Assembly (NCBI GenBank): GCA_048886185.1
Contig: JBHLKY010000040.1
Span: 1 to 19,867, forward strand
Length of the DNA stretch: 19,867 bases
Direction: 5' to 3'
Source of the DNA: Candidatus Hermodarchaeota archaeon
GTDB lineage: Archaea > Asgardarchaeota > Heimdallarchaeia > Hodarchaeales > Hodarchaeaceae
The notes below the pieces were generated by a model that had not been told where the DNA came from, searched no databases, and saw nothing but the letters and a program-made list of their open reading frames with translations. Below, in pieces: positions 1 through 19,439 of this stretch. How positions within the stretch are numbered: the stretch's first letter is position 1; every line of letters starts with the position of its first letter. The position numbers and the translations under genes are program-made.

Positions 1-638
1 ATTACTGCAAAAACTCCAACTGGTATAGCTTTTGTCTTTCTACATAACTCGATTAGATTAATACTTGTTGTTTGAGAGCGTATAGCATCATCAACTATTA
101 AAACATGTTCTCCTCGTCGTAGAGACCCCTTTGGGATATAGAGCGAGTAACTATAGGCTCCTACAAAAACTTGTTGTTCAATAAAATGCTCTACTCCAAT
201 TTCTTTTTTCTTTTTTGCATATACAACTTCTACTTCTAGCTCAAAACCCACAGCATATGCTATTGGAAGTCCATCTGTACTAGTAGATAGTATTTTATCA
301 ATGTCCATGTGGGAGAATTCAGAAACAACGAAAGATGCAATGTGTCGTAGAAGAGCGGTATTATAGAGGAGAAATAGATGATTGAAATGTCCATGCTCAT
401 CTATTGAGATGTTATTTCGAACTTCTTCCTTTAGCATATTCTCATAAGTATTAATAATATATTTAGAACGATCATCGGAAGGTAAAACGTGGCCCTTGAC
501 ATAACGTGCTATTACTGGAACAGGAATGTTCAACATAGTAGATAAAGAATCGTAAGTGTTAGTCTTTTTTAATTGTCTTAATACACTATTAGCAAATAAT
601 CTCTGTTTTACTAAGCTTTCTTTATTCACTTTTCCCAA
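1..638 (-). CDS. HTH + type I phosphoribosyltransferase-fold protein (archaeal PurR-like/APRT-related), truncated at its 3' end by the window edge; absent from the ORF track
   Basis: Manual translation of the - strand is open from TTG 638 (or GTG 629) to base 1: (MGK)VNKESLVKQRLFANSVLRQLKKTNTYDSLSTMLNIPVPVIARYVKGHVLPSDDRSK...IDKILSTSTDGLPIAYAVG...VVYAKKKKEIG...LYIPKGSLRRGEHVLIVDDAIRSQTTSINLIELCRKTKAIPVGVFAV. It has an N-terminal HTH-like segment (TYDSLSTMLNIPVPVIARYVKGHVLP) and a PRPP-binding motif VLIVDD. GAGGT lies 5 nt before the TTG. Confidence 0.85.
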   Translation of the reverse strand, partial: MGKVNKESLVKQRLFANSVLRQLKKTNTYDSLSTMLNIPVPVIARYVKGHVLPSDDRSKYIINTYENMLKEEVRNNISIDEHGHFNHLFLLYNTALLRHIASFVVSEFSHMDIDKILSTSTDGLPIAYAVGFELEVEVVYAKKKKEIGVEHFIEQQVFVGAYSYSLYIPKGSLRRGEHVLIVDDAIRSQTTSINLIELCRKTKAIPVGVFAV

Positions 639-656
639 CTTTAACCTCTAATAATT

Positions 657-1616
657 CTAGAATTCAATTAATTTTCCATCAAAAGGTGAAATGACCTTGA
701 TTTTTCCATTTCCTTTCTGTAAAACTTCTCCGATCATTATACTATTTGGTGCCTGCTTTTCAAATCGTTCTTTATCTTTTGGGTGAATTATTTCGACAAA
801 TCCAATTCCACAATTAAATGTTCGGAGCATTTCAAATGATGGGGTTTCTATCAATTCATTTAACTTTGAATAGAGTATTTCAAAAATCTTCAAAAGTGTT
901 ATTTGACTAAAATCTAAATAAATATCTAAATCATTCGATATCAGCTTTCTTAGCTTGGTAAAAGCTCCTCCTGTAATGTGCATCCTTCTATTGGCGAATG
1001 AAGTCTTTTTTAATACATCTAAGTAAATAGCAGTTGGTATTGTAAGTTCTTCAATGTAATTTTCATAGATACTATCACCTAATAGTCCTCGGGCCATTGA
1101 AAGTCCATTACTATGAATTCCAGTGCTTAAATGTCCATATATAATATTTCCCGCCTTTACTGGATTGTTTATTATACTATGGGTAAAACCAGTCATATGG
1201 ATTCCGACTTCCATTCCCTTAAGTGTATTTAAAATGGCAGTTTCTCCACCCATGAATATAGTATTATATTTTAGGCATAATTCCGATAATTTTTTCACAA
1301 CTAAATTGATTGCGCTTTCTTTCTCTTCCTGTAGAATGAGATGACAATTTAACGTTCTTGGATTGAAACCCAGAATAGCTAGATCATTAATATTCATCGC
1401 AAAAGCATCGATTGCTGCTGATTCGAAACTTCCAAATAACCAGTGTAGATATCCCTTTGTACCAATACCATCAACATGTTCCAGTAAATAACCATTTGAT
1501 TTCTTTATAATGGGATAACCAGCTTCTGTAAAAATAGAATTGGTCCATGTTTTTTGAATACTTTCCAAAATACTCTTAGTAAATGGTTTTTCGGGATTAT
1601 ATAGTCCAAATGTCAT
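657..1616 (-). CDS. purM: Phosphoribosylformylglycinamidine cyclo-ligase (AIR synthetase)
   Basis: Motifs DGIGTK, AMNINDL, GGETA, STGIHSNG, HITGG and TFNCGIG; pur cluster context. The N-terminus is atypical. Confidence 0.9.
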   Translation of the reverse strand: MTFGLYNPEKPFTKSILESIQKTWTNSIFTEAGYPIIKKSNGYLLEHVDGIGTKGYLHWLFGSFESAAIDAFAMNINDLAILGFNPRTLNCHLILQEEKESAINLVVKKLSELCLKYNTIFMGGETAILNTLKGMEVGIHMTGFTHSIINNPVKAGNIIYGHLSTGIHSNGLSMARGLLGDSIYENYIEELTIPTAIYLDVLKKTSFANRRMHITGGAFTKLRKLISNDLDIYLDFSQITLLKIFEILYSKLNELIETPSFEMLRTFNCGIGFVEIIHPKDKERFEKQAPNSIMIGEVLQKGNGKIKVISPFDGKLIEF

Positions 1617-1617
1617 T

Positions 1618-2922
1618 TTAACTGACTCCCTCTCCTATATCAGTTCTAAAGTGTAATTTTCCAGAAACAGAATTTACAGCATTATAGGCATAATCTCGTG
1701 CTTCATTAATTGACTCACCCAAGCCTAATATTCCGATTGATCTAGAGCGAGTTGTTAATATTTTTCCATCAGAAGTCTCATCTACAGAAGCGTAATATAA
1801 TTTGCAATTAGAACCATTTATTTTATCACTATTAACAGCTATCTCCTCATTAGCCTCTGGTTGTGTGGGATATCCCATTGGGGTCAAATATACGCAGACT
1901 GTCGCTCTATTGTGCCATTTTTTCTGTTTTAGATTTCCATCTATCATCTCTTCACAAGACTTTGAAAAATCATCTAAAAGTAAAGGAAGGACATTCATTG
2001 CTTCAGGATCTCCAAATCGAGAATTAAATTCAATAAGCTTGACTCCTCTATCAGTAAGCATAAATTGACCATATAAAACTCCTTTATAATTACCAAGGTT
2101 CATGACAGTCTTCTTCATTATATTGATGGCATGATTGTAATCCTTATTTGACAGAAAAGATAATTTATGATCAGAGAGTGAATAAGATCCCATACTTCCT
2201 GTGTTTGGCCCTTTATCCTCGTTAAAAGCCCTTTTGAAATCTTGAACTAGAGGCATTGGTATAATTTTGTTTCCACTAACTAAGGCCTGTAATGTGAACT
2301 CAGAATTTTTCAGATTGTTTGGTTTTTGGAGCTTCTCTTCAACAATGACTTTTCTAGTACCCTTAGTCAAGACTTGTTTGACATAATCAACGATTTCATC
2401 CTTTGAATTTAAGTGGTCTCCCCATACTTTCACTCCCTTTCCTCCTGTCAAATAATCTGGTTTTATAACAATTTGATTGTTAAAATCTTTCAAGATTTTT
2501 TTGATATTTCTTTCAATATCCTCCAAATTATCTTCATGAGAAAATATGTGGAACTCGGGATAACCAGGTATCTTATTATCCTTCATAAGATTTCTTGTAT
2601 AAGCTTTACTCCATTCAATTTTACTCATTTCCCTATTTGGAGCTGCACATTTAATTTCAGCCTTTTCAAGAGAATCAACAATCCCATTTGATAGGGGATT
2701 CTCAGGCCCTATTACAGCAAAATCTGCTTTGATTGATTTTGCATATTTAACAATTTGATCATTATCACCTAAATCACCAATTTGAAATCCTTTTGATAAT
2801 TTTTTTATTCCAGGATTAATCGTACTCATAAAAGCGAAAAGACGAACTTCATCAAATTTAACAAGAGCTTCGGAGATAACGTGTTCTCTTGCACCATTAC
2901 CTACTAACAAGAACCTGTTCAT
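1618..2922 (-). CDS. purD: Phosphoribosylamine-glycine ligase (GAR synthetase)
   Basis: LLVGNGAREH, VIGPENPL, EWSK, VIKPDYLTGGKGV, GPNTGSMGSYS, GVLYGQFM, IEFNSRFGDPE. Confidence 0.96.
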   Translation of the reverse strand: MNRFLLVGNGAREHVISEALVKFDEVRLFAFMSTINPGIKKLSKGFQIGDLGDNDQIVKYAKSIKADFAVIGPENPLSNGIVDSLEKAEIKCAAPNREMSKIEWSKAYTRNLMKDNKIPGYPEFHIFSHEDNLEDIERNIKKILKDFNNQIVIKPDYLTGGKGVKVWGDHLNSKDEIVDYVKQVLTKGTRKVIVEEKLQKPNNLKNSEFTLQALVSGNKIIPMPLVQDFKRAFNEDKGPNTGSMGSYSLSDHKLSFLSNKDYNHAINIMKKTVMNLGNYKGVLYGQFMLTDRGVKLIEFNSRFGDPEAMNVLPLLLDDFSKSCEEMIDGNLKQKKWHNRATVCVYLTPMGYPTQPEANEEIAVNSDKINGSNCKLYYASVDETSDGKILTTRSRSIGILGLGESINEARDYAYNAVNSVSGKLHFRTDIGEGVS

Positions 2923-4294
2923 AACATCTTACATCCTCATTCATTGATCCAATATTCTTTAATAATATCTTCGCTTTTTCTGTCGGATAATTTCCGTCTA
3001 AACACGCTGTGCATAAGCTTTGAACTCCAATAGCGTCGTGTAAATCCTCGATTGTCATGTAAATTAAAGAATCACAGCCTAAAATCTTCTTTATTCTATC
3101 AACCGAGTTTGCCGCTGCTAATAACTCACCTGGTCGGGACATATCTATTCCATAAACACAGGGAAATTTTATCATTGGTGTAGTAATTCCAACATGAATT
3201 TTTTGGGCTCCTTTTTCATGTAAAAGCTCAATTACTCGTTTCAAAGTTGTCCCCCGTACGATTGAATCATCGATTAAAATTAGGTTCTTCCCCCTAATTA
3301 TGCTGGGAACAGTTTCATATACTTTATTAACAGCATTAAAGCGATCTTTTTCAGTTGGTTTAATAAAAATTCTACCTGATGAACTTTTAATTAATCCATC
3401 TGCATATGGTAGTCCTAAAAATGATGCACAACCTAGTGCAGCAGTTTTAGCAGTGTTGGGAACTGGAATAACATAATCTACTTCTGTAATGTCGTATTCA
3501 AAGAGTAATTTTCCTAATTTTTGTCCTAAGTTAAATCTTACCTGATAAACCTCTTTTCCATCAAGATTTGATGGCGCTTGAGAGAAATAAGTCCATTCAA
3601 ACATACAAGGATGTGATTTCTGATACATAAATCTATGTTTTTCAATAGATTCTCTTGAAAAGATCATTAAACTCCCTGGAGACACAAAATTATACTCTAC
3701 AATCCCTAGCTTTTCCAGAATCCGCGTCTCGGAGGTTACAAAATAACCATCATCCAATTTCCCCCAACAGAGAGGTCTTATCCCATTTGGATCTCGAAAT
3801 GCTATTAATTTATCGTCACCGATAAGCGCTATAACACTGTAGGCTCCATCTATTTCAGATAATAATCTCCTCACTGCAGAGTATATTGTTGGACTGTCTT
3901 CTAAATTCCTTTTTAATAATTTAGTAAGAAGAGCACCATCATTTTCTTCTTTATTGATATGAGGATATAAGATGTTACCATTGAACACTAAACTTAACAT
4001 TCCTCTTCTTGTTGATTCGATAAATGGAGATATGTGGAAATGCATTGATTCTTGGTTTAAAACACCAATAGTTGGATATCTGGTAGAGCCAACACATGCA
4101 TCGATAGTTTCAAAGGAATAAGGGATGTTTTTTTCCAAGTTAACAGCTGTTCCTTGACATTTTTCACTAATGAATCCATTAGCAAATCCAGTGAGACCTG
4201 CAGCCTCTTGACCTCGCGTACTTAAGTCCTCCAAACAATTTACAAAAGTACCAATGCTTATATTTCCTCCGATAACTCCTAAAATCCCACACAT
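2897..4294 (-). CDS. purF: Amidophosphoribosyltransferase (glutamine PRPP amidotransferase), Fe-S type
   Basis: N-terminal MCGILG (Ntn nucleophile Cys), RGQEAAG, RDPNGIRPL, SET, PCMFEWTYF, IDDSIVRGTT (PRPP site), PCVYGIDM, LCTACLDGNYP. Confidence 0.96.
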   Translation of the reverse strand: MCGILGVIGGNISIGTFVNCLEDLSTRGQEAAGLTGFANGFISEKCQGTAVNLEKNIPYSFETIDACVGSTRYPTIGVLNQESMHFHISPFIESTRRGMLSLVFNGNILYPHINKEENDGALLTKLLKRNLEDSPTIYSAVRRLLSEIDGAYSVIALIGDDKLIAFRDPNGIRPLCWGKLDDGYFVTSETRILEKLGIVEYNFVSPGSLMIFSRESIEKHRFMYQKSHPCMFEWTYFSQAPSNLDGKEVYQVRFNLGQKLGKLLFEYDITEVDYVIPVPNTAKTAALGCASFLGLPYADGLIKSSSGRIFIKPTEKDRFNAVNKVYETVPSIIRGKNLILIDDSIVRGTTLKRVIELLHEKGAQKIHVGITTPMIKFPCVYGIDMSRPGELLAAANSVDRIKKILGCDSLIYMTIEDLHDAIGVQSLCTACLDGNYPTEKAKILLKNIGSMNEDVRCYEQVLVSR

Positions 4295-4300
4295 TGTTTA

Positions 4301-4417
4301 TCATAACTCCAATATACATTTATCAATAAAAATGATTTTATCGCCAAGATTTGATTTCGGTTCTTCTTTTATAACGAGTTTCACTAGAGTTTCCTCAACT
4401 TGAAGCATTACATCCAT
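4301..4417 (-). CDS. Possible small ORF (38 aa, MDVMLQVEETLVKLVIKEEPKSNLGDKIIFIDKCILEL) or frameshifted C-terminal extension of PurE
   Basis: It fills the only sizeable gap (4295-4440) in an otherwise tightly packed operon, stops 6 nt before the purF ATG, and its frame is open back to 4486 inside purE. No family recognised. Confidence 0.35.
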   Translation of the reverse strand: MDVMLQVEETLVKLVIKEEPKSNLGDKIIFIDKCILEL

Positions 4418-4440
4418 TGCTTTCTGTTTGAATGGGTGAA

Positions 4441-4815
4441 TTACTTTCCTAATATCCTTAAAGCTAACAATGCAGCATTTTGGCCATTATCTATGCCAAC
4501 ACAAGCAACTGGCACACCTTTAGGCATTTGAACTATCGATAATAAAGCATCTATGCCATTTAAAACTCCCGAGACTGGTACTCCAATAACGGGTCTTTGG
4601 GTTCTTGCCGCAACATATCCTGGTAATGCTGCAGATAATCCAGCAACACAAATGAATATATTCTCTTTTGATTCATTGATTATTTTTTCAACTAATTTGG
4701 GATTCCGATGACATGAGGCATAATGAACATCGAAATTTACTCTTCCTTCCAATTCAGAAGTAATAGTTTTAACGATATTTTCGTCACTTTTGCTTCCTGC
4801 TATTATGGTAATCAT
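4441..4815 (-). CDS. purE: PurE (AIR carboxylase / N5-CAIR mutase family), short form
   Basis: IIAGSKSD, ASCHRNP, VAGLSAALPG, RPVIGVP, DALLSIVQMPKGVPVACVGIDNGQNAALLALRIL. Confidence 0.93.
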   Translation of the reverse strand: MITIIAGSKSDENIVKTITSELEGRVNFDVHYASCHRNPKLVEKIINESKENIFICVAGLSAALPGYVAARTQRPVIGVPVSGVLNGIDALLSIVQMPKGVPVACVGIDNGQNAALLALRILGK

Positions 4816-5515
4816 TGATATCCTTTCTCCATAATTCTAGTAAACGGTAGTGAAAATTAAAGTGCTCTTCATCCCATAAAATTTCTACTTTCCTCCCATT
4901 TAGGTTTAATAATTTCTTCTTGTATAGCCTTAATGTTTCGGCAAATATTAAATACTCTCTCTTTAAATTTCGCTCTGATAAATTACTTAAAGGTTCAGAT
5001 GGCAGAACTGGGGTAGAAGCTTGAAGAATTATTGGCCCATGATCTTCTTTATCATCAACAAAGTGAGTTGTGCACCCAATAACCTTTACTCCATAATTTA
5101 AGGCATCTGGAATTCCATGCAATCCTTTAAAAGAGGGTAAAATTGCTGGATGAATGTTTATTGCAGTAAATTCATCTAGAATTACCGGGGTTACAAAAAG
5201 CATATATCCAGCAAGGCATAATATCTCAACGTCCCTTTTTTTAAGTTCGTACATGATTTTATGATCATATTCTCTTCTTAAAGAGTCATTCATTATATCT
5301 TCAATTTTCATTCCTCTTTTAAATTTGATAAAAGAGGGGGGTTCAAGAAATAAGGATAAAATCCCATTATTCTTAGCTCTTTCCAAAGAATATGAATTAT
5401 TTTTATTACTAATAACAATCTCAACATTTGAATTAGGAATGTATCCTGTTTTACAAGCATCAATTATAGCTTGCAAATTGGTCCCACTTCCACTAGCAAG
5501 AACCCCAATTTTCAT
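4784..5515 (-). CDS. purN: Phosphoribosylglycinamide formyltransferase (folate-dependent GAR transformylase)
   Basis: GVLASGSGTNLQAIID, LAGYM, INIHPAILPSFKG (N-x-H catalytic motif), GCTTHFVD, DHGPIILQ. Confidence 0.95.
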   Translation of the reverse strand: MKIGVLASGSGTNLQAIIDACKTGYIPNSNVEIVISNKNNSYSLERAKNNGILSLFLEPPSFIKFKRGMKIEDIMNDSLRREYDHKIMYELKKRDVEILCLAGYMLFVTPVILDEFTAINIHPAILPSFKGLHGIPDALNYGVKVIGCTTHFVDDKEDHGPIILQASTPVLPSEPLSNLSERNLKREYLIFAETLRLYKKKLLNLNGRKVEILWDEEHFNFHYRLLELWRKDINDYHNSRKQK

Positions 5516-6369
5516 TTTAACACTCCATTGACTCTTTTATATGCTTTAAGGGTATTTTTTAATAAAACAGCGATTGTTAAGGGACCTAATCCTCCCGGAA
5601 CTGTAGAAACAAATGAAGCTTTTTTAAAAATGAGATCAGTAAACTCTCGTTCAGTTTTTGTATTCGCACAGTCAATTGCAATGACTCCCTCCTTTAATAT
5701 ATCAGCATCGATTAATTTTGGCATTCCTGTGGCGGATACAACGATATCAGCGGATCTTAATTCATTAATAACCCGTTCCCTATCAACAATACGATGGATT
5801 TTTGTAACAAAAGCATTCTCTTTCTCTAATAATTGAGCAACAGGTGTCCCTATTAACCTTCCCCGACCGAGGACAACTGCCTTTTTACCTTTCACATCAA
5901 TATTATAAGCTTCTAACAATCGTTTTAATCCTTCAGCTGCACAAGGAACAAAAACATCAGAACTATAGTATGATCTGCCAATATTAATAAAGTTAAGTCC
6001 ATCGATATCTTTTTCAGTGTTAATGAGTTCGAGTATCTCATTCTCATTATATTGTGGAGGTAGCGGTAATTGAACCATAATCCCAGTAATGTCTATGTTC
6101 TCATTCTGTTTCAAAATTAATTCTTTGATTTTAGTAGGTTCAACTATATTATTAAAAGCGTATAGGGAATAGCGAATACCCACTTCTACACATTTACGTT
6201 CTTTCATACGTTGATAGATGTAAGATCCTTTGTCATTACCAATGATGATTGCAATCAATCTTGGATCGTATTGGTTTTTCTCGATTTCTGCTTTTACATT
6301 TTCAAGTATTTTTTGAGAGAGTGTTGTTCCATCCATTATTGTTCCTATATTCGAAACTACTTTTGACAT
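5512..6369 (-). CDS. folD: Bifunctional methylene-THF dehydrogenase / methenyl-THF cyclohydrolase
   Basis: SYIYQRMK (YxxxK), GIMVQLPLP, KDIDG, PCA, GKKAVVLGRG, ADIVVSATG, VPGGLGPLT. ATGA overlap with purN. Confidence 0.92.
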   Translation of the reverse strand: MSKVVSNIGTIMDGTTLSQKILENVKAEIEKNQYDPRLIAIIIGNDKGSYIYQRMKERKCVEVGIRYSLYAFNNIVEPTKIKELILKQNENIDITGIMVQLPLPPQYNENEILELINTEKDIDGLNFINIGRSYYSSDVFVPCAAEGLKRLLEAYNIDVKGKKAVVLGRGRLIGTPVAQLLEKENAFVTKIHRIVDRERVINELRSADIVVSATGMPKLIDADILKEGVIAIDCANTKTEREFTDLIFKKASFVSTVPGGLGPLTIAVLLKNTLKAYKRVNGVLK

Positions 6370-6375
6370 TATAGT

Positions 6376-7200
6376 TCACTTAGTTGCCTGTTTCAAACGT
6401 GTGGTGACTTCTTTGTATCGATTAATGATTAAAGATGCATTTTCTTGCAGAATTTGTTTATACTCGTTCTTATTAGCATTTCTTAGTTTCTCTCGTATGA
6501 ATTCTTTGTCATAATAATCAGGAGGGGCTTTTTTATCCCCTTTAAGCCAGATTCTATCAAATGTACGAAACTCGTCAGGGCCAAATGAATCAATCACACA
6601 TAATTCATCTTTTCCACTTAAACCCATCTCTATTTTTCCATCTACAAGAATCAATCCAGCTTTATCAAATAATTCAGTCAATAAATGCGAAATTACCTTA
6701 ACTTCCTCCAAAACATTCTTATATAACAACATTCCGTTATCCAAATTCATTTCTGAAAAGGATTCTTTCATTATTTTCCAAATATCATCACGATCTAGAT
6801 TATATCGATCCTTTACTTCCTTCTTAGTGCTTACTTCAACAAATACTTGTGGAAATCGCGAATATTCCTTACATTCCATGTCCCTTGGAAGTTTTAGCGT
6901 TCCATTTAGAGCACGTTGTAAAGCAGATCCAGTTAATAAATTTCTAAAAATAAACTCAAAATCTAAAGGATTACATTTATACATGATAATGTAATCATCA
7001 CCTCCTTCCAGCATTGCTGTTTTGATATTATTTTTTGATAAATAATTAAAGATCACTCGTGTACATTCAGCAAGTATCTTTCCTCTTCCTTCTATTTTTC
7101 CTATAACCTCATCAAAAACACTTAGTCTATCTGAAAAAACAAATTTAATTTTACCATCAGAGGAATAACCATCTTTATTTTTTCCTTGAATAATTTTTAT
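6376..7200 (-). CDS. purC: SAICAR synthetase; extended beyond the ORF-track GTG (7056) to a putative ATA start at 7200 (274 aa)
   Basis: The in-frame sequence upstream of 7056 reads IKIIQGKNKDGYSSDGKIKFVFSDRLSVFDEVIGKIEGRGKILAECTR, which is the conserved PurC N-terminus (GKxK, SDRxSxFD). Downstream motifs: EFIFRNLLTGS, LVDGKIEMG, DSFGPDEFR, DKEFIR. The gene call is confident; the exact start is inferred. Confidence 0.88.
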   Translation of the reverse strand: MKIIQGKNKDGYSSDGKIKFVFSDRLSVFDEVIGKIEGRGKILAECTRVIFNYLSKNNIKTAMLEGGDDYIIMYKCNPLDFEFIFRNLLTGSALQRALNGTLKLPRDMECKEYSRFPQVFVEVSTKKEVKDRYNLDRDDIWKIMKESFSEMNLDNGMLLYKNVLEEVKVISHLLTELFDKAGLILVDGKIEMGLSGKDELCVIDSFGPDEFRTFDRIWLKGDKKAPPDYYDKEFIREKLRNANKNEYKQILQENASLIINRYKEVTTRLKQATK

Positions 7201-7215
7201 GAAAAATCCTTCCTT

Positions 7216-7245: not shown

Positions 7246-7322
7246 AGAAAAATGTCAATTAAAAAATTTTTGCGTCGATTGGTGAAATCTACTTAAATAG
7301 AGATATGACAGTAGTAATATTT

Positions 7323-7342
7323 TTTAACATAAAGATGTTAAA
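7323..7342. promoter_or_regulatory. Perfect inverted repeat TTTAACAT-AAAG-ATGTTAAA, candidate operator in the divergent promoter
   Basis: 8-bp arms with a 4-nt spacer between the divergent purC and purL starts. Confidence 0.5.
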
Positions 7343-7353
7343 TTGCTTAGAAT

Positions 7354-7377
7354 GACGAAACTAAATTTTAAATTTAG
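7354..7377 (+). promoter_or_regulatory. Candidate archaeal BRE/TATA promoter for purL (leaderless transcript), overlapped by palindrome CTAAATTT-T-AAATTTAG
   Basis: TTTTAAAT at 7366-7373 is ~24-31 nt upstream of ATG 7397. Purine-rich GACGAAA lies upstream at 7354-7360. There is no SD before purL. The palindrome spans 7361-7377. Confidence 0.45.
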
Positions 7378-7396
7378 ATAGTAATTTCCCTTCGTT

Positions 7397-10222
7397 ATGA
7401 ATAAAACTTACTTCGTAAGTATTTTTCCTAAAAATAACGTTTATGATCCTTTAAAGCGAGATATAGAAAAAAATTTGGCTGAATTTGAGATAGAAGCAAA
7501 AATTCAAACAACTTGTAATTATATGATCCAAGGTGACCTTGATAATAAACAGATTATTCAGATTTGCGAAGATTTATTAGTAGATTTTGTGTCTCATGAA
7601 TATATTGTTAATGAAGACAAATTAATTTTTCCTGATTGGGGTCAAACATATGTAATTACGGTTGAATATAAAAAAGGAGTAATGGATGCTACAGGTTTAT
7701 CATTAAAACAATTACTTCACTCAGTCGGGATAGAAGTCCGAGGTGTGAGATCAAGTACCTCAGTACTCCTATCTACAAAGACAGAAAAGGAGGTAGTAAT
7801 TGTTGCGCTCAAAAAATTCTTAGTAAATGATTTGATACAGGACGTTATTACTTCAGAGGATAATTCTTATAATTTTAAGAGTGTTAAAATCCCACTTTTA
7901 AATATCGACTCAGAGGCCATGGTAAAGCTAAGTAATGAGTTAATGTTGGCATTAAATATCGAGGAAATGCGAAAGATTCGGCGTTATTTCAAAAATCTTG
8001 GACGTGACCCAAGTGATGTTGAACTTGAAACACTAGCTCAAACTTGGTCAGAGCATTGTGTCCATAAAACTTTCAAGGGTGTTATCACTTATGAAGGAGA
8101 GGAAATCAAAAGTCTGCTTAAATCGTATATAATGAAAGCAACAGAGATAATTAACCCAGATTGGTGTATTAGCGTCTTTTCTGATAATGCTGGTATCATT
8201 AAATTCGATGATCAGTATGCTCTAGCTGTGAAAGTAGAAACTCATAATCATCCCACCGCATTAGATCCATATGGTGGGGCTGGTACTGGAAGTGGAGGTG
8301 TTTTCAGGGATATTATGGGAGTGGGAGGAGAACCAATTCTTTCAACTGATAATCTCTTTTTTGGTTTACTAGACACAAATATTGACGATTTACCAAATGG
8401 GATAATGCATCCAAAAAGACTGATGAAAGGTTCTGTTGCAGGGATTCGTGATTATGGCAATAAAATGGGTATACCAACTGCAAATGGGTCAATTGGATTT
8501 CATAAGAATTACTTAGGTAATCCACTAGTATTTGCGGGATGTGTTGGAATTCTTCCAATTGAAAAATATGTGAGAAATCCTCAACAAGGAGATTTAATTG
8601 TTCTGGTTGGAGGTAAAACAGGAAGGGATGGAATCCATGGTGTAACTTTTGCTTCAAAAACCTTAACTTCTGAATCTGAGTCCACTGCAAGTAGTGCTGT
8701 GCAAATTGGTAATCCTCTTGAGCAAAAACGTGTGATGGATGCTTTACTAAAAGCTCGAGACCATCTCGACGGACCATTGTACTCTGCAATTACTGATTGT
8801 GGAGGTGGGGGCTTAAGTTCTGCTGTGGGCGAAATGGGTAAAAATTTCGGAGTAGAAGTAAACCTCGAGAAAGTGCCTCTGAAATATGAAGGATTATTGC
8901 CATGGGAAATCTGGGTTTCAGAATCGCAAGAAAGGATGCTTTTAACTGTTCAAAAAGAAAACATTGGAAAACTAAGAGAAATTTTCGAATTAGAGAATTG
9001 TGAACTCTCGGTAATTGGTAAATTCACAGATTCTAGATCTTTAGTTCTGAAATTCGATGATGAGATTGTGTGTAATCTGGATATGGATTTTTTACATAAT
9101 GGTGTTCCACCAATTTTTCGGATGGCTAAGAAAACTAAGGTGATTGAAGCAAAAGTAGAGATTAATGATTCGGAAACGTATGGTGATGAACTATGTAAGA
9201 TTCTTAGTCACCCAATGGTTGCAAGTAAAGAATGGATTATACGTCAATATGATCATGAAGTGAGGGCAAATACAATTATTAAACCTCTACAGGGAATTGA
9301 ATATGACAGTCACGGTGATTGTTGTGTTATCAAACCATTGAGAGAATCATGGCAAGGATTTATTGTATCTAATGGCTTCAATCCAAATTACTCTTCTAAT
9401 CCTCGAAAAATGGCTCAGAGTAGTATTGATGAGGCTATACGTAATAATGTTTGTAGTGGAGGAAGGCGAATTGCTATGCTTGATAATTTTAGTTGGGGGA
9501 ATCCAGAGGATAGTGAAAACTTAGGTGCCTTAGTTGAAGCATGTCAAGCCTGCTATGAATCAGCGGTTACACTCGAAGTTCCATTCATTAGTGGTAAGGA
9601 TAGCTTGTATAATGATTTTCTATCAGATACTGAAGAATTAATTACTATACCTCACACTCTACTAATAACAAGTATAGGCTTAATCCCAGACGTAAGAGAT
9701 AGCATAACTACCGATTTTAAAACAGAGGGAAATTATATCTATTTAATTGGGGAAACCTTTCTGGAATTGGGGGGCTCCTTATTTTATGAAATAAAAAATA
9801 TTTCTAGAGGAATCATTCCTGATGTAAATCTAAAGAAATCTAAATTAATTTTTGAGAAGATAGTAAAAGCTATTGATCAAAAGCTAATACTAGCTTGTCA
9901 TGATTGCAGTGAAGGAGGAGTTGGAGTCGCTTTAGCAGAAATGTGCTTTGGAGGAAATATTGGAGCAATAATTGACTTAAATCAAGTTAAAACTGATTTA
10001 ACTAAGAATTATCAGATCCTCTTTTCAGAATCAAATACAAGATTTGTTGTAGAAGTTAACCGATCTGAAGAATTTGAGAGAGTTATGATAGGTGTCTCAT
10101 TTTCTAAAATTGGACATATAAAGGGAGAAAGATTAATCATCAAAGGTTTATCTGGAGAACGGATTGTTGATGAGCGAATTCATGATTTGAAAGAAATATG
10201 GAAAAAGACTTTCAATTGGTGA
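7397..10222 (+). CDS. purL: FGAM synthase subunit PurL with two N-terminal PurS-like domains (PurSL fusion)
   Basis: QTWSEHCVHKTF, KVETHNHP, GIRDYGNKMGIP, AITDCGGGGLSSA, SESQERM, VSGKDS-like ISGKDSLYN, CHDCSEGG, LFSESNTRF. The first ~155 aa are two ~75-aa units resembling PurS (VYDP.../VMDATG...). Confidence 0.95.
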   Translation: MNKTYFVSIFPKNNVYDPLKRDIEKNLAEFEIEAKIQTTCNYMIQGDLDNKQIIQICEDLLVDFVSHEYIVNEDKLIFPDWGQTYVITVEYKKGVMDATGLSLKQLLHSVGIEVRGVRSSTSVLLSTKTEKEVVIVALKKFLVNDLIQDVITSEDNSYNFKSVKIPLLNIDSEAMVKLSNELMLALNIEEMRKIRRYFKNLGRDPSDVELETLAQTWSEHCVHKTFKGVITYEGEEIKSLLKSYIMKATEIINPDWCISVFSDNAGIIKFDDQYALAVKVETHNHPTALDPYGGAGTGSGGVFRDIMGVGGEPILSTDNLFFGLLDTNIDDLPNGIMHPKRLMKGSVAGIRDYGNKMGIPTANGSIGFHKNYLGNPLVFAGCVGILPIEKYVRNPQQGDLIVLVGGKTGRDGIHGVTFASKTLTSESESTASSAVQIGNPLEQKRVMDALLKARDHLDGPLYSAITDCGGGGLSSAVGEMGKNFGVEVNLEKVPLKYEGLLPWEIWVSESQERMLLTVQKENIGKLREIFELENCELSVIGKFTDSRSLVLKFDDEIVCNLDMDFLHNGVPPIFRMAKKTKVIEAKVEINDSETYGDELCKILSHPMVASKEWIIRQYDHEVRANTIIKPLQGIEYDSHGDCCVIKPLRESWQGFIVSNGFNPNYSSNPRKMAQSSIDEAIRNNVCSGGRRIAMLDNFSWGNPEDSENLGALVEACQACYESAVTLEVPFISGKDSLYNDFLSDTEELITIPHTLLITSIGLIPDVRDSITTDFKTEGNYIYLIGETFLELGGSLFYEIKNISRGIIPDVNLKKSKLIFEKIVKAIDQKLILACHDCSEGGVGVALAEMCFGGNIGAIIDLNQVKTDLTKNYQILFSESNTRFVVEVNRSEEFERVMIGVSFSKIGHIKGERLIIKGLSGERIVDERIHDLKEIWKKTFNW

Positions 10223-19010: not shown

Positions 19011-19439
19011 CTAAAGATTTGAGTAACGAGTTTTTTTGATGACATGAAAAGCAAGATGTTTTAGGAATTCAGTCTTAAATGAATTACCAAATGATGTAAG
19101 TCCATATATAGCCCCTATCCGTTCTTTCGGGGTGTAATTTCTGACAATCTTCATTTTTTTGAATTGTTTGATCACCCGAGAGACATTTGTTGGTGAAATA
19201 CCAGTTAATATACTGATCTCAGTTTGGGTCAGATTTTCATTCAATAGTAAGTGGTAAATTTGTCGACGATTTTTCCCTCTTAGTACAAAAACAAGACTTT
19301 TTGTCTTATTTTTCTGAGTTTTAGCTGATTTAATATCTATTTTTGAGTTATCCTTGTCTTTAACAATGTAAGCTAGTTCTATTAGTGTAACCAGTCTTTT
19401 TGGGGGCATCTTCTCCCATGAACTTCCCTCTCTCTTCAT
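19011..19439 (-). CDS. Winged helix-turn-helix transcriptional regulator (ArsR/MarR-like, archaeal type); start uncertain
   Basis: LRGKNRRQIYHLLLNENLTQTEISILTGISPTNVSRVIKQFKKMKIV...RIGAIYGLTSFG (HTH plus wing ending YxLT). Confidence 0.8.
   Translation of the reverse strand: MKREGSSWEKMPPKRLVTLIELAYIVKDKDNSKIDIKSAKTQKNKTKSLVFVLRGKNRRQIYHLLLNENLTQTEISILTGISPTNVSRVIKQFKKMKIVRNYTPKERIGAIYGLTSFGNSFKTEFLKHLAFHVIKKTRYSNL

Follow-up and report, generated by a model that had tools for sequence, protein, structure and literature searches.

The stretch of DNA analyzed here (the window) corresponds to bases 1–19,867 of contig C40 in a Candidatus Hermodarchaeota genome assembly (G000; 4.84 Mb in 75 contigs, about 35% G+C). 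It carries two divergent arms of purine biosynthesis genes (Table 1) and, at the tail of the left arm, the gene under study, the predicted product of which combines a helix-turn-helix (HTH) with a phosphoribosyltransferase (PRT) fold and is a candidate regulator of the purine genes. This gene was identified as a minus-strand open frame running from a TTG at position 638 to base 3 (212 codons with no stop) and off the edge of the contig. Since the window begins at the start of contig C40, the truncation of the gene is due to the edge of the assembly and not to a mutation. The full-length homologues are 233–236 amino acids (aa) long, and about 21 C-terminal residues are missing from the window protein. 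The nearest relatives of this protein are found in the Hodarchaeota (Asgard). P0002, a full-length protein of 233 residues, is 97% identical to it, and the start called in P0002 is a GTG located three codons further in.

The stop codon of purM occupies positions 657–659, which leaves a spacer of 18 nucleotides (nt) before the TTG, and this short gap implies that the regulator gene would be co-transcribed with the left pur arm. An open frame located 18 nt after purM and encoding an HTH-like segment and a type I PRT fold (VLIVDD) had been announced in the original prediction, with which the spacer, the frame and the PRT profile matches all agree. The same prediction included the palindromes at 7323–7377 in a regulatory circuit. 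This proposal holds in part: the palindrome at 7323–7342 recurs with the gene family at purine genes, but the one at 7361–7377 is not kept palindromic. The block TTTAAAATTTAG, located 20–36 nt upstream of the purL ATG, is conserved in the relatives; since the outer arm of this quasi-palindrome is not, it is most likely the TATA region of purL, the mRNA of which would be leaderless or have a short leader. The possibility that 7361–7377 might be a second operator was rejected, one arm being altered in the related locus L082 and a 2-nt insertion being present in L002.

Table 1. Position of the putative regulator gene, its predicted domains and the surrounding purine genes and promoter elements in the window (BRE, transcription factor B recognition element; PRPP, phosphoribosyl pyrophosphate)
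Feature	Position	Strand	Remarks
Putative HTH-PRT regulator gene (NF006328 family), 5' 212 of about 236 codons	3..638	-	About 21 C-terminal codons beyond the contig end
Loop of the PRPP motif, VLIVDDAIRSQTT	66..104	-	Acidic pair and last Thr kept; loop Gly replaced by Gln
Predicted Xre-type HTH, helix 2 and recognition helix (..PVPVIARYVKGHVLPS)	495..554	-	R, Y, G and P invariant in 36 homologues
Spacer between purM and the regulator gene, 18 nt	639..656	-	Shine-Dalgarno-like GAGGT at 644–648, 5 nt before the TTG
Left pur arm of the shared promoter: purC, folD, purN, purE, purF, purD, purM	657..7200	-	Gene neighbourhood
Putative TATA box of the purC arm, conserved TATTTAAG-like block	7292..7302	-	Alignment with relatives
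Candidate operator TTTAACAT-AAAG-ATGTTAAA	7323..7342	.	Midway between the putative TATA boxes of the purC and purL arms
AT-rich quasi-palindrome, most likely the purL TATA/BRE	7361..7377	+	20–36 nt before the purL ATG
Right pur arm: purS-purL fusion, purQ, two purP paralogues, guaA	7397..14552	+	Gene neighbourhood

Protein family and predicted structure

The truncated window protein is a member of the family NF006328 (PRK08558), on which it scored 203.7 bits for a cut-off of 184, full-length P0002 scored 216.1 bits and a Thermococcus homologue 343 bits. NCBIfam has named this family "adenine phosphoribosyltransferase", in line with the statement in the original prediction that HTH-PRT proteins are usually labelled as resembling adenine phosphoribosyltransferase (APRT). 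The PRT domain (PF00156) was also matched (27.1 bits, cut-off 26.3). The scores obtained with the curated enzyme models were below the cut-offs in all cases: 29.1 vs. 185.85 with TIGR01090 (apt), 37.3 vs. 146 with the best of the NF00263x models, 54 vs. 177 with the xanthine phosphoribosyltransferase (XPRT) model, and 38 vs. 200 with HPT_Archaea. The best solved relative in terms of sequence was the PRT domain of Bacillus subtilis PurR (E 1e-8), followed by XPRT (E 3e-5); no member of NF006328 with a solved structure was present among the matches in the Protein Data Bank (PDB).

The HTH_3 domain (PF01381) was weakly matched by the window protein alone (E = 0.15, below the cut-off) and was matched by 25 of the 36 aligned homologues (best E 6.4e-7), and the predicted Xre/Cro-type HTH is clear at the level of the family. 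The HTH is the most conserved region in these 36 homologues, where residues K21, Y26, R42, Y43, G46, P50, and R54 are invariant, as are the ligand-site residues D119, G120, A138, K139, E151, D180, and D181 of the PRT domain. The PRPP motif includes an invariant Arg at the position occupied by Lys in B. subtilis PurR and, in the same alignment, by Ala in XPRT. In the Hodarchaeota clade, the PRPP turn reads SQTT, SRTT, or STTT instead of TGxT, the glycine of the loop being replaced.

In the AlphaFold2 (AF2) model of full-length P0002, which was built from the 36-sequence alignment (pLDDT 91.8), four N-terminal helices precede the PRT fold, and the helices at residues 26–33 and 37–45 are compatible with an HTH. 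When this model was compared with solved structures using Foldseek, only the PRT part was aligned, with TM-scores of 0.77–0.86 to APRT, to XPRT and to the PRT domain of PurR, and 0.52–0.55 in terms of the longer PurR chain. The profile and structure predictions that had been called for at the outset gave a PRT fold based on PF00156, NF006328, and Foldseek, and a putative HTH based on the family-level PF01381 matches and the helices of the AF2 model. With two copies of the protein, a symmetric dimer was predicted (ipSAE 0.82 vs. 0.00 for the best control, pLDDT 90, at least 97% of the contacts being shared between runs); among proteins of known structure, an ipSAE of 0.82 was attained by 20 of the 30 pairs and by 1 of the 23 single chains. 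Since APRT and PurR dimers have already been solved, this result may reflect a resemblance to these known structures.

Distribution of the palindrome and of the gene

The sequence TTTAACAY-N4-RTGTTAAA occurs exactly once in the 4.84 Mb genome, at 7323–7342. When up to two mismatches were allowed, 20 sites were found, among which the pur site alone is exact and the others are mostly located within open reading frames (ORFs). The sole site with one mismatch, C29:8590, lies upstream of a sugar-nucleotide dehydratase/aminotransferase cluster and was not counted as belonging to the regulon. No convincing site was detected in this genome before purB or before the genes of two salvage PRTases, a match with three mismatches upstream of purB not being counted.

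The motif is present with zero to two mismatches in the homologous divergent purC/purL spacer of L082, L002/G005, G019, and L144. The copy in L082 is exact and the letters of its spacer differ; that in L002/G005 reads TTTCACAC-GAAC-GTGTTAAA and shows a symmetric change, T to C in one arm and A to G in the other; one mismatch is present in G019 and two are present in L144, where the protein is 62% identical. At six other loci (L004–L009, five of which, L005–L009, are of the Nitrososphaerales type), the motif was found with zero or one mismatch 4–13 nt past the stop codon of the homologue, with fixed arms and a variable N4 spacer, and the genes located downstream are purS-purQ-purL-purF or purF-purD. 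In L005–L009, the site lies about 30 nt upstream of a strong TATA box and purS. At eight Brockarchaeota/Thermoproteota loci with no pur gene nearby, the site precedes the regulator protein match by about 50 nt; in L092, it lies 28 nt before the regulator ATG, overlapping the expected position of the TATA box. In the Brockarchaeota, a second site is located about 10 kb away, 39 nt before the gene encoding a Bmp/PnrA-type nucleoside-binding protein of a nucleoside ABC transporter. In the 1.16 Mb of loci searched, the motif was matched 22 times vs. 4 times in the case of the reversed control, mostly at recurrent fixed positions.

Within one mismatch of the motif, the Thermococcus genome G043 contains just three sites (vs. 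0 in the control), which are located before purL, before purS-purQ and before a gene of the xanthine/uracil-permease family (Xan_ur_permease). The three sites have a common layout, consisting of the site, 6–8 nt, CTTAAAAA, about 45 nt, a Shine-Dalgarno sequence and the ATG. The regulator gene of G043 is itself not linked to the pur genes, and these sites support the existence of a putative regulon acting in trans. A second Thermococcus genome carries a site with two mismatches before purS-purQ. The co-occurrence of the candidate operator with the family, either beside purine genes or beside the family's own gene, holds in the Hodarchaeota, Nitrososphaerales, Brockarchaeota, and Thermococcus, and the recurrence of the site at purine genes spans three archaeal phyla. 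The sites with one mismatch found in 40 Asgard relatives were attributed to chance, their rate being that of the reversed control and the annotated intergenic ones lying by unrelated genes; single sites in one Atabeyarchaeia and one Bathyarchaeota genome, beside ModE-like or unannotated small ORFs, were uninformative.

The gene neighbourhoods were analyzed in 80 homologous loci from reference genomes and in the loci of homologues looked up individually. Among the 80 reference loci, pur genes adjoin the homologue only in the nearest relatives. The homologue is the tail gene of the operon, placed after purM, in the Hodarchaeota (L002, L003, L082, L083, and L144); it heads the purS-purQ-purL-purF genes in the Nitrososphaerales-type loci (L005–L009), precedes purF-purD in L004 and is divergent from purL in L052. 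In the maximum-likelihood tree, the Hodarchaeota clade is sister to the pur-linked Nitrososphaerales/Thermoproteales group (support 97/91) and lies apart from the other Heimdall-class homologues. In the Hodarchaeota clade including P0006 and P0007, about 100 nt lie between purM and the regulator gene (9900–10000 in L083 and 1922–2024 in L003), including a conserved TATA-like box (CTTATAAAT/CTTATATAT) which is followed in L083 by a TTAAC-N5-GTTAA element directly before the regulator ATG; the regulator of this clade is predicted to have its own promoter in this spacer. The P0006 protein recurs in identical form in L084 (region 1214–1350), a second contig of 4.3 kb obtained from the same sample, with a run of N just upstream; rather than a second genomic context, this is probably a duplicate arising from scaffolding. 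The gene for the P0012 homologue has no pur linkage, and Cas12f1-like/TnpB genes lie on either side of it in L142 (6701–7897 and 1543–2766) and L143 (1181–2377 and 6963–8054).

A distant clade of Heimdall-class HTH-PRT proteins (about 27% identity, 150 bits on NF006328, under the cut-off) resembles the present family in its architecture, in the divergent orientation of its gene with respect to a pur operon, purQ-purL-purE-purM-purN-purF-purD, and in the presence of palindromes in the spacer (12758–12924 in L121 and 11903–12069 in L122). It forms a separate long branch in the tree and differs in both the recognition helix, which is SIANLSRYINGK vs. PVPVLARYVKGH in this lineage, and the putative operator, two TTGCA-N6-TGCAA palindromes being present about 150 nt apart in the spacer; the latter motif was not found at the pur promoters of this lineage. 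This comparison supports a co-variation between the operator and the recognition helix: a different helix together with a different operator is what direct pairing between protein and DNA predicts.

Seven genes with a PRT domain were identified in G000. Two of them encode PRTases of 200 and 206 aa matching Sulfolobus GpT-2 and GpT-1 (4Z1O, E 1e-31 and 4e-28; also 4TRB), so that salvage is covered without the HTH-PRT protein. In the 22 genomes of the same genus (G000–G021), purD was detected in seven. Strong copies of the HTH-PRT gene are present in G000, G005, G017, G019, and G021, all of which are purD-positive, and in none of the 15 genomes without a detected purD, among which G006 carries a paralogue scoring 119 bits. 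In G008, G010, and G013, purL was not found either, and G010 carries a stand-alone APRT/HPT-like enzyme of 190 aa which is not present in G000. The purD match in G019 (C41:16491–17789) contains one in-frame TAA, which might correspond to a sequencing error or to a broken gene. Since purine auxotrophs should keep a salvage enzyme and need not keep a regulator of the de novo genes, this pattern favours a regulator; since the genomes are kin and some of them are incomplete, it constitutes supporting evidence and not a statistical test. It also indicates that this one genus may be divided into purine prototrophs and auxotrophs, and suggests that the whole purine cluster and the regulator are present or absent together in this group of Hodarchaeota.

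Proposed function and alternative explanations

Based on these comparisons, we consider it likely that the gene encodes a homodimeric transcription factor controlling the purine genes, with a PRT domain which would be a sensor and not a salvage enzyme. The N-terminal Xre-type HTH of the homodimer would read the palindrome TTTAACAY-N4-RTGTTAAA, and the C-terminal PRT-fold domain would respond to a small molecule. Lying between the core promoters of the divergent purC and purL arms, the single operator would control all 13 genes in the purine cluster, and the regulator gene, being the last of the left arm, would close an autoregulatory loop. The most economical candidate for the effector would be PRPP, since it is the substrate of PurF and the effector of PurR, and since the acidic pair, K139/K142 and the ligand-site residues are conserved.

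Archaeal activators usually bind upstream of the BRE/TATA, and the PurR of Lactococcus lactis is an activator. The centre of the operator, at 7332.5, is about 37 bp away from each of the two putative TATA boxes, on the upstream side, which gives a modest lean towards activation at the pur promoters here; the sites in L005–L009 lie at a similar distance from the TATA box. In the Brockarchaeota, the site and the TATA region overlap at the promoter of the regulator gene itself, which suggests autorepression. The sites in Thermococcus and the site on the purL side in L144 abut the BRE/TATA.

Several points weigh against this reading. The support for DNA binding and for the ligand is wholly comparative, and catalytic competence would be compatible with the sequence. 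Since the glycine of the phosphate turn is replaced in this clade (SQTT), the effector may be some other phosphosugar, or a nucleotide. Five further Thermococcus genomes were found to contain no site within one mismatch of the motif, and in P0006/P0007 and G017, which form the closest sister clade among the Hodarchaeota, no recognisable copy of this palindrome was present at the purC or purL promoters. Imperfect sites (one or more mismatches) occur at the background level in the AT-rich Asgard genomes, and those outside the cluster adjoin unrelated genes. The Thermococcus copies, which adjoin SRP54, an Lrp-family gene and a CxxCxxCC gene, are not pur-linked; neither are the Bathyarchaeia/Brockarchaeota copies, which adjoin the genes for tRNA-splicing endonuclease, HisRS, LeuRS, and an IF-2B-family protein. 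G001 and G016 carry purD, and no copy of the HTH-PRT gene was detected there. The synteny with pur genes expected in the original prediction was thus only partly recovered: three different pur-linked gene orders were found, but the Thermococcus and Bathyarchaeia copies are located among housekeeping genes. Likewise, the idea of a PurR analogue controlling the divergent pur promoter and itself is supported by the co-occurrence of operator and family at pur genes or at the family's own gene, but the linkage with pur genes does not extend to the whole family.

The protein might also be bifunctional, that is, a regulator of purine genes keeping a low PRTase activity on purines or other substrates, as PyrR keeps its uracil phosphoribosyltransferase activity. 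This would be consistent with the complete PRT fold (TM-score of at least 0.8 to active APRTs), with the conservation of D180, D181, T188, K139, and K142, and with the status of NF006328 as an APRT equivalog in NCBIfam. However, the protein scores far under every curated enzyme model (TIGR01090, XPRT, and HPT_Archaea), an invariant Asp occupies the position in the pyrophosphate loop where the enzymes have Arg, Lys, or Ser, and the genome already contains two dedicated purine PRTases; there is moreover no structure of the family in the PDB, and no paper was found on its enzymatic activity. Bifunctionality therefore seems rather improbable. A plain adenine or purine salvage enzyme, the N-terminal helices of which would have no role in DNA binding, the palindrome being bound by another factor, would account for the database label and for the many homologues located away from pur genes. 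It would leave unexplained why conservation is highest in the N-terminal HTH and why the palindrome tracks the gene itself even when no pur gene is nearby. The dedicated salvage PRTases of this genome, the lack of a strong copy in the 15 genomes of the genus for which no purD was detected, and the stand-alone APRT/HPT-like enzyme of G010, which is without purL and purD, also argue against such an enzyme, which we regard as very unlikely.

Lastly, the palindrome might act in the form of RNA, as a hairpin or a terminator-like element, and not as a protein operator: a short hairpin can form, and in the Nitrososphaerales the palindrome comes directly after the stop codon. In the window and in L144, however, it lies upstream of both putative core promoters and would therefore not be transcribed. 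Besides, the folding of 7300–7400 was no better than that of shuffled sequences (z = -1.27, not significant), no Rfam match was obtained, and the arms are conserved across phyla in their sequence and not just in their pairing, so that this explanation was set aside as having hardly any chance of being correct.

The proposed transcription factor resembles the PurR of Firmicutes (B. subtilis and L. lactis; TIGR01743; PDB 1O57, 1P4A, and 7RMW) in that a DNA-binding domain is combined with a non-catalytic type I PRT domain, the gene lies among or close to purine genes and has a link with the promoters of these genes, and a dimer is predicted. The G-I/L-P-L/I-A loop is also common to the two proteins, and the PRPP motif of each includes a basic residue (Lys in PurR and Arg here, vs. 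Ala in XPRT). They differ in their DNA-binding domains, an Xre/Cro-type HTH (PF01381) being predicted here instead of the PuR_N winged helix (PF09182), which was matched neither by the window protein nor by the 36 homologues, and in their length (about 235 vs. 285 aa). The window protein scored 54.9 bits on TIGR01743 (cut-off 258.7), and only the PRT domain was matched. Firmicute PurBoxes are paired, weakly conserved boxes, whereas the candidate operator here is a 20-bp palindrome of the perfect type in an archaeal TATA/BRE promoter context.

GfcR of Haloferax volcanii is an archaeal transcription factor with an HTH and a PRT domain, which was shown by experiment to bind promoters directly; it senses phosphorylated metabolites in the former PRPP site, activates sugar catabolism and derives its PRT domain from a PyrE-like (orotate PRT) domain (PMC10838023). 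The window protein scored 13.3 bits on the GfcR model NF045507 (cut-off 300), its PRT domain being of the APRT/XPRT/PurR type. The predicted protein would follow a logic similar to that of PurR and GfcR, but it would bind a new operator, in the context of archaeal promoters, through a DNA-binding domain of another kind. In the literature, GfcR was the only experimentally studied archaeal HTH-PRT regulator found; no purine-pathway regulator was found to have been described in any archaeon, nothing was found on the present one, and the main curated review on archaeal purine synthesis mentions neither PurR, nor an operator, nor a helix-turn-helix.

The broader idea that NF006328 might be a pan-archaeal purine regulator (in Asgard, Thermoproteota, and Thermococci) is favoured only slightly over its contrary. 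The family would use one operator, TTTAACAT-N4-ATGTTAAA, to control the genes of the de novo pathway, as well as nucleoside ABC importers and nucleobase permeases; the PRT sensor of the family would have a specific ancestry in common with that of the Firmicute PurR, and the DNA-binding domains would have been recruited independently. The idea of a shared ancestry is based on pairwise alignments only (the GIPLA loop and the basic residue of the PRPP motif). If this is true, Archaea would have their first defined purine regulator, and a whole family of "enzymes" would have to be renamed. The window protein is a member of NF006328, the name of which asserts an enzyme function for which no support was found; its gene context here contradicts the name, and the family propagated in databases as "adenine phosphoribosyltransferase" is probably misnamed. 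The regulator would be a second independent case, after GfcR, of archaea making the PRT fold a metabolite sensor. The protein, the exact 20-bp operator and the predicted regulon form a concrete set which is directly testable.

Other features of the purine cluster

A 142-aa winged-helix protein showing weak matches with Crp, MarR, and ArsR-type HTHs and no evident link with purines is encoded on the minus strand at 19011–19439. The only sizeable gap in the left arm is that between purE and purF (4295–4440, 146 nt), at the position of which a 48-aa ORF was called in L082. The purB gene of G000 is located outside the purine cluster (C5:13574–15503), where it is convergent with one of the two GpT-type PRTase genes, and in L083 purB is located within the operon, between purE and purF, at the place corresponding to the gap. 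At the purC start, L002 has an ATG where the window has ATA (7197–7202, minus strand) and the 97%-identical L082 has ATT, the last two both being preceded by AAGGAAGGA. Since the conserved N-terminus of PurC extends upstream of the first canonical start, GTG 7056, and since the ATG of L002 is aligned with this position, purC is suggested to use a non-AUG start.

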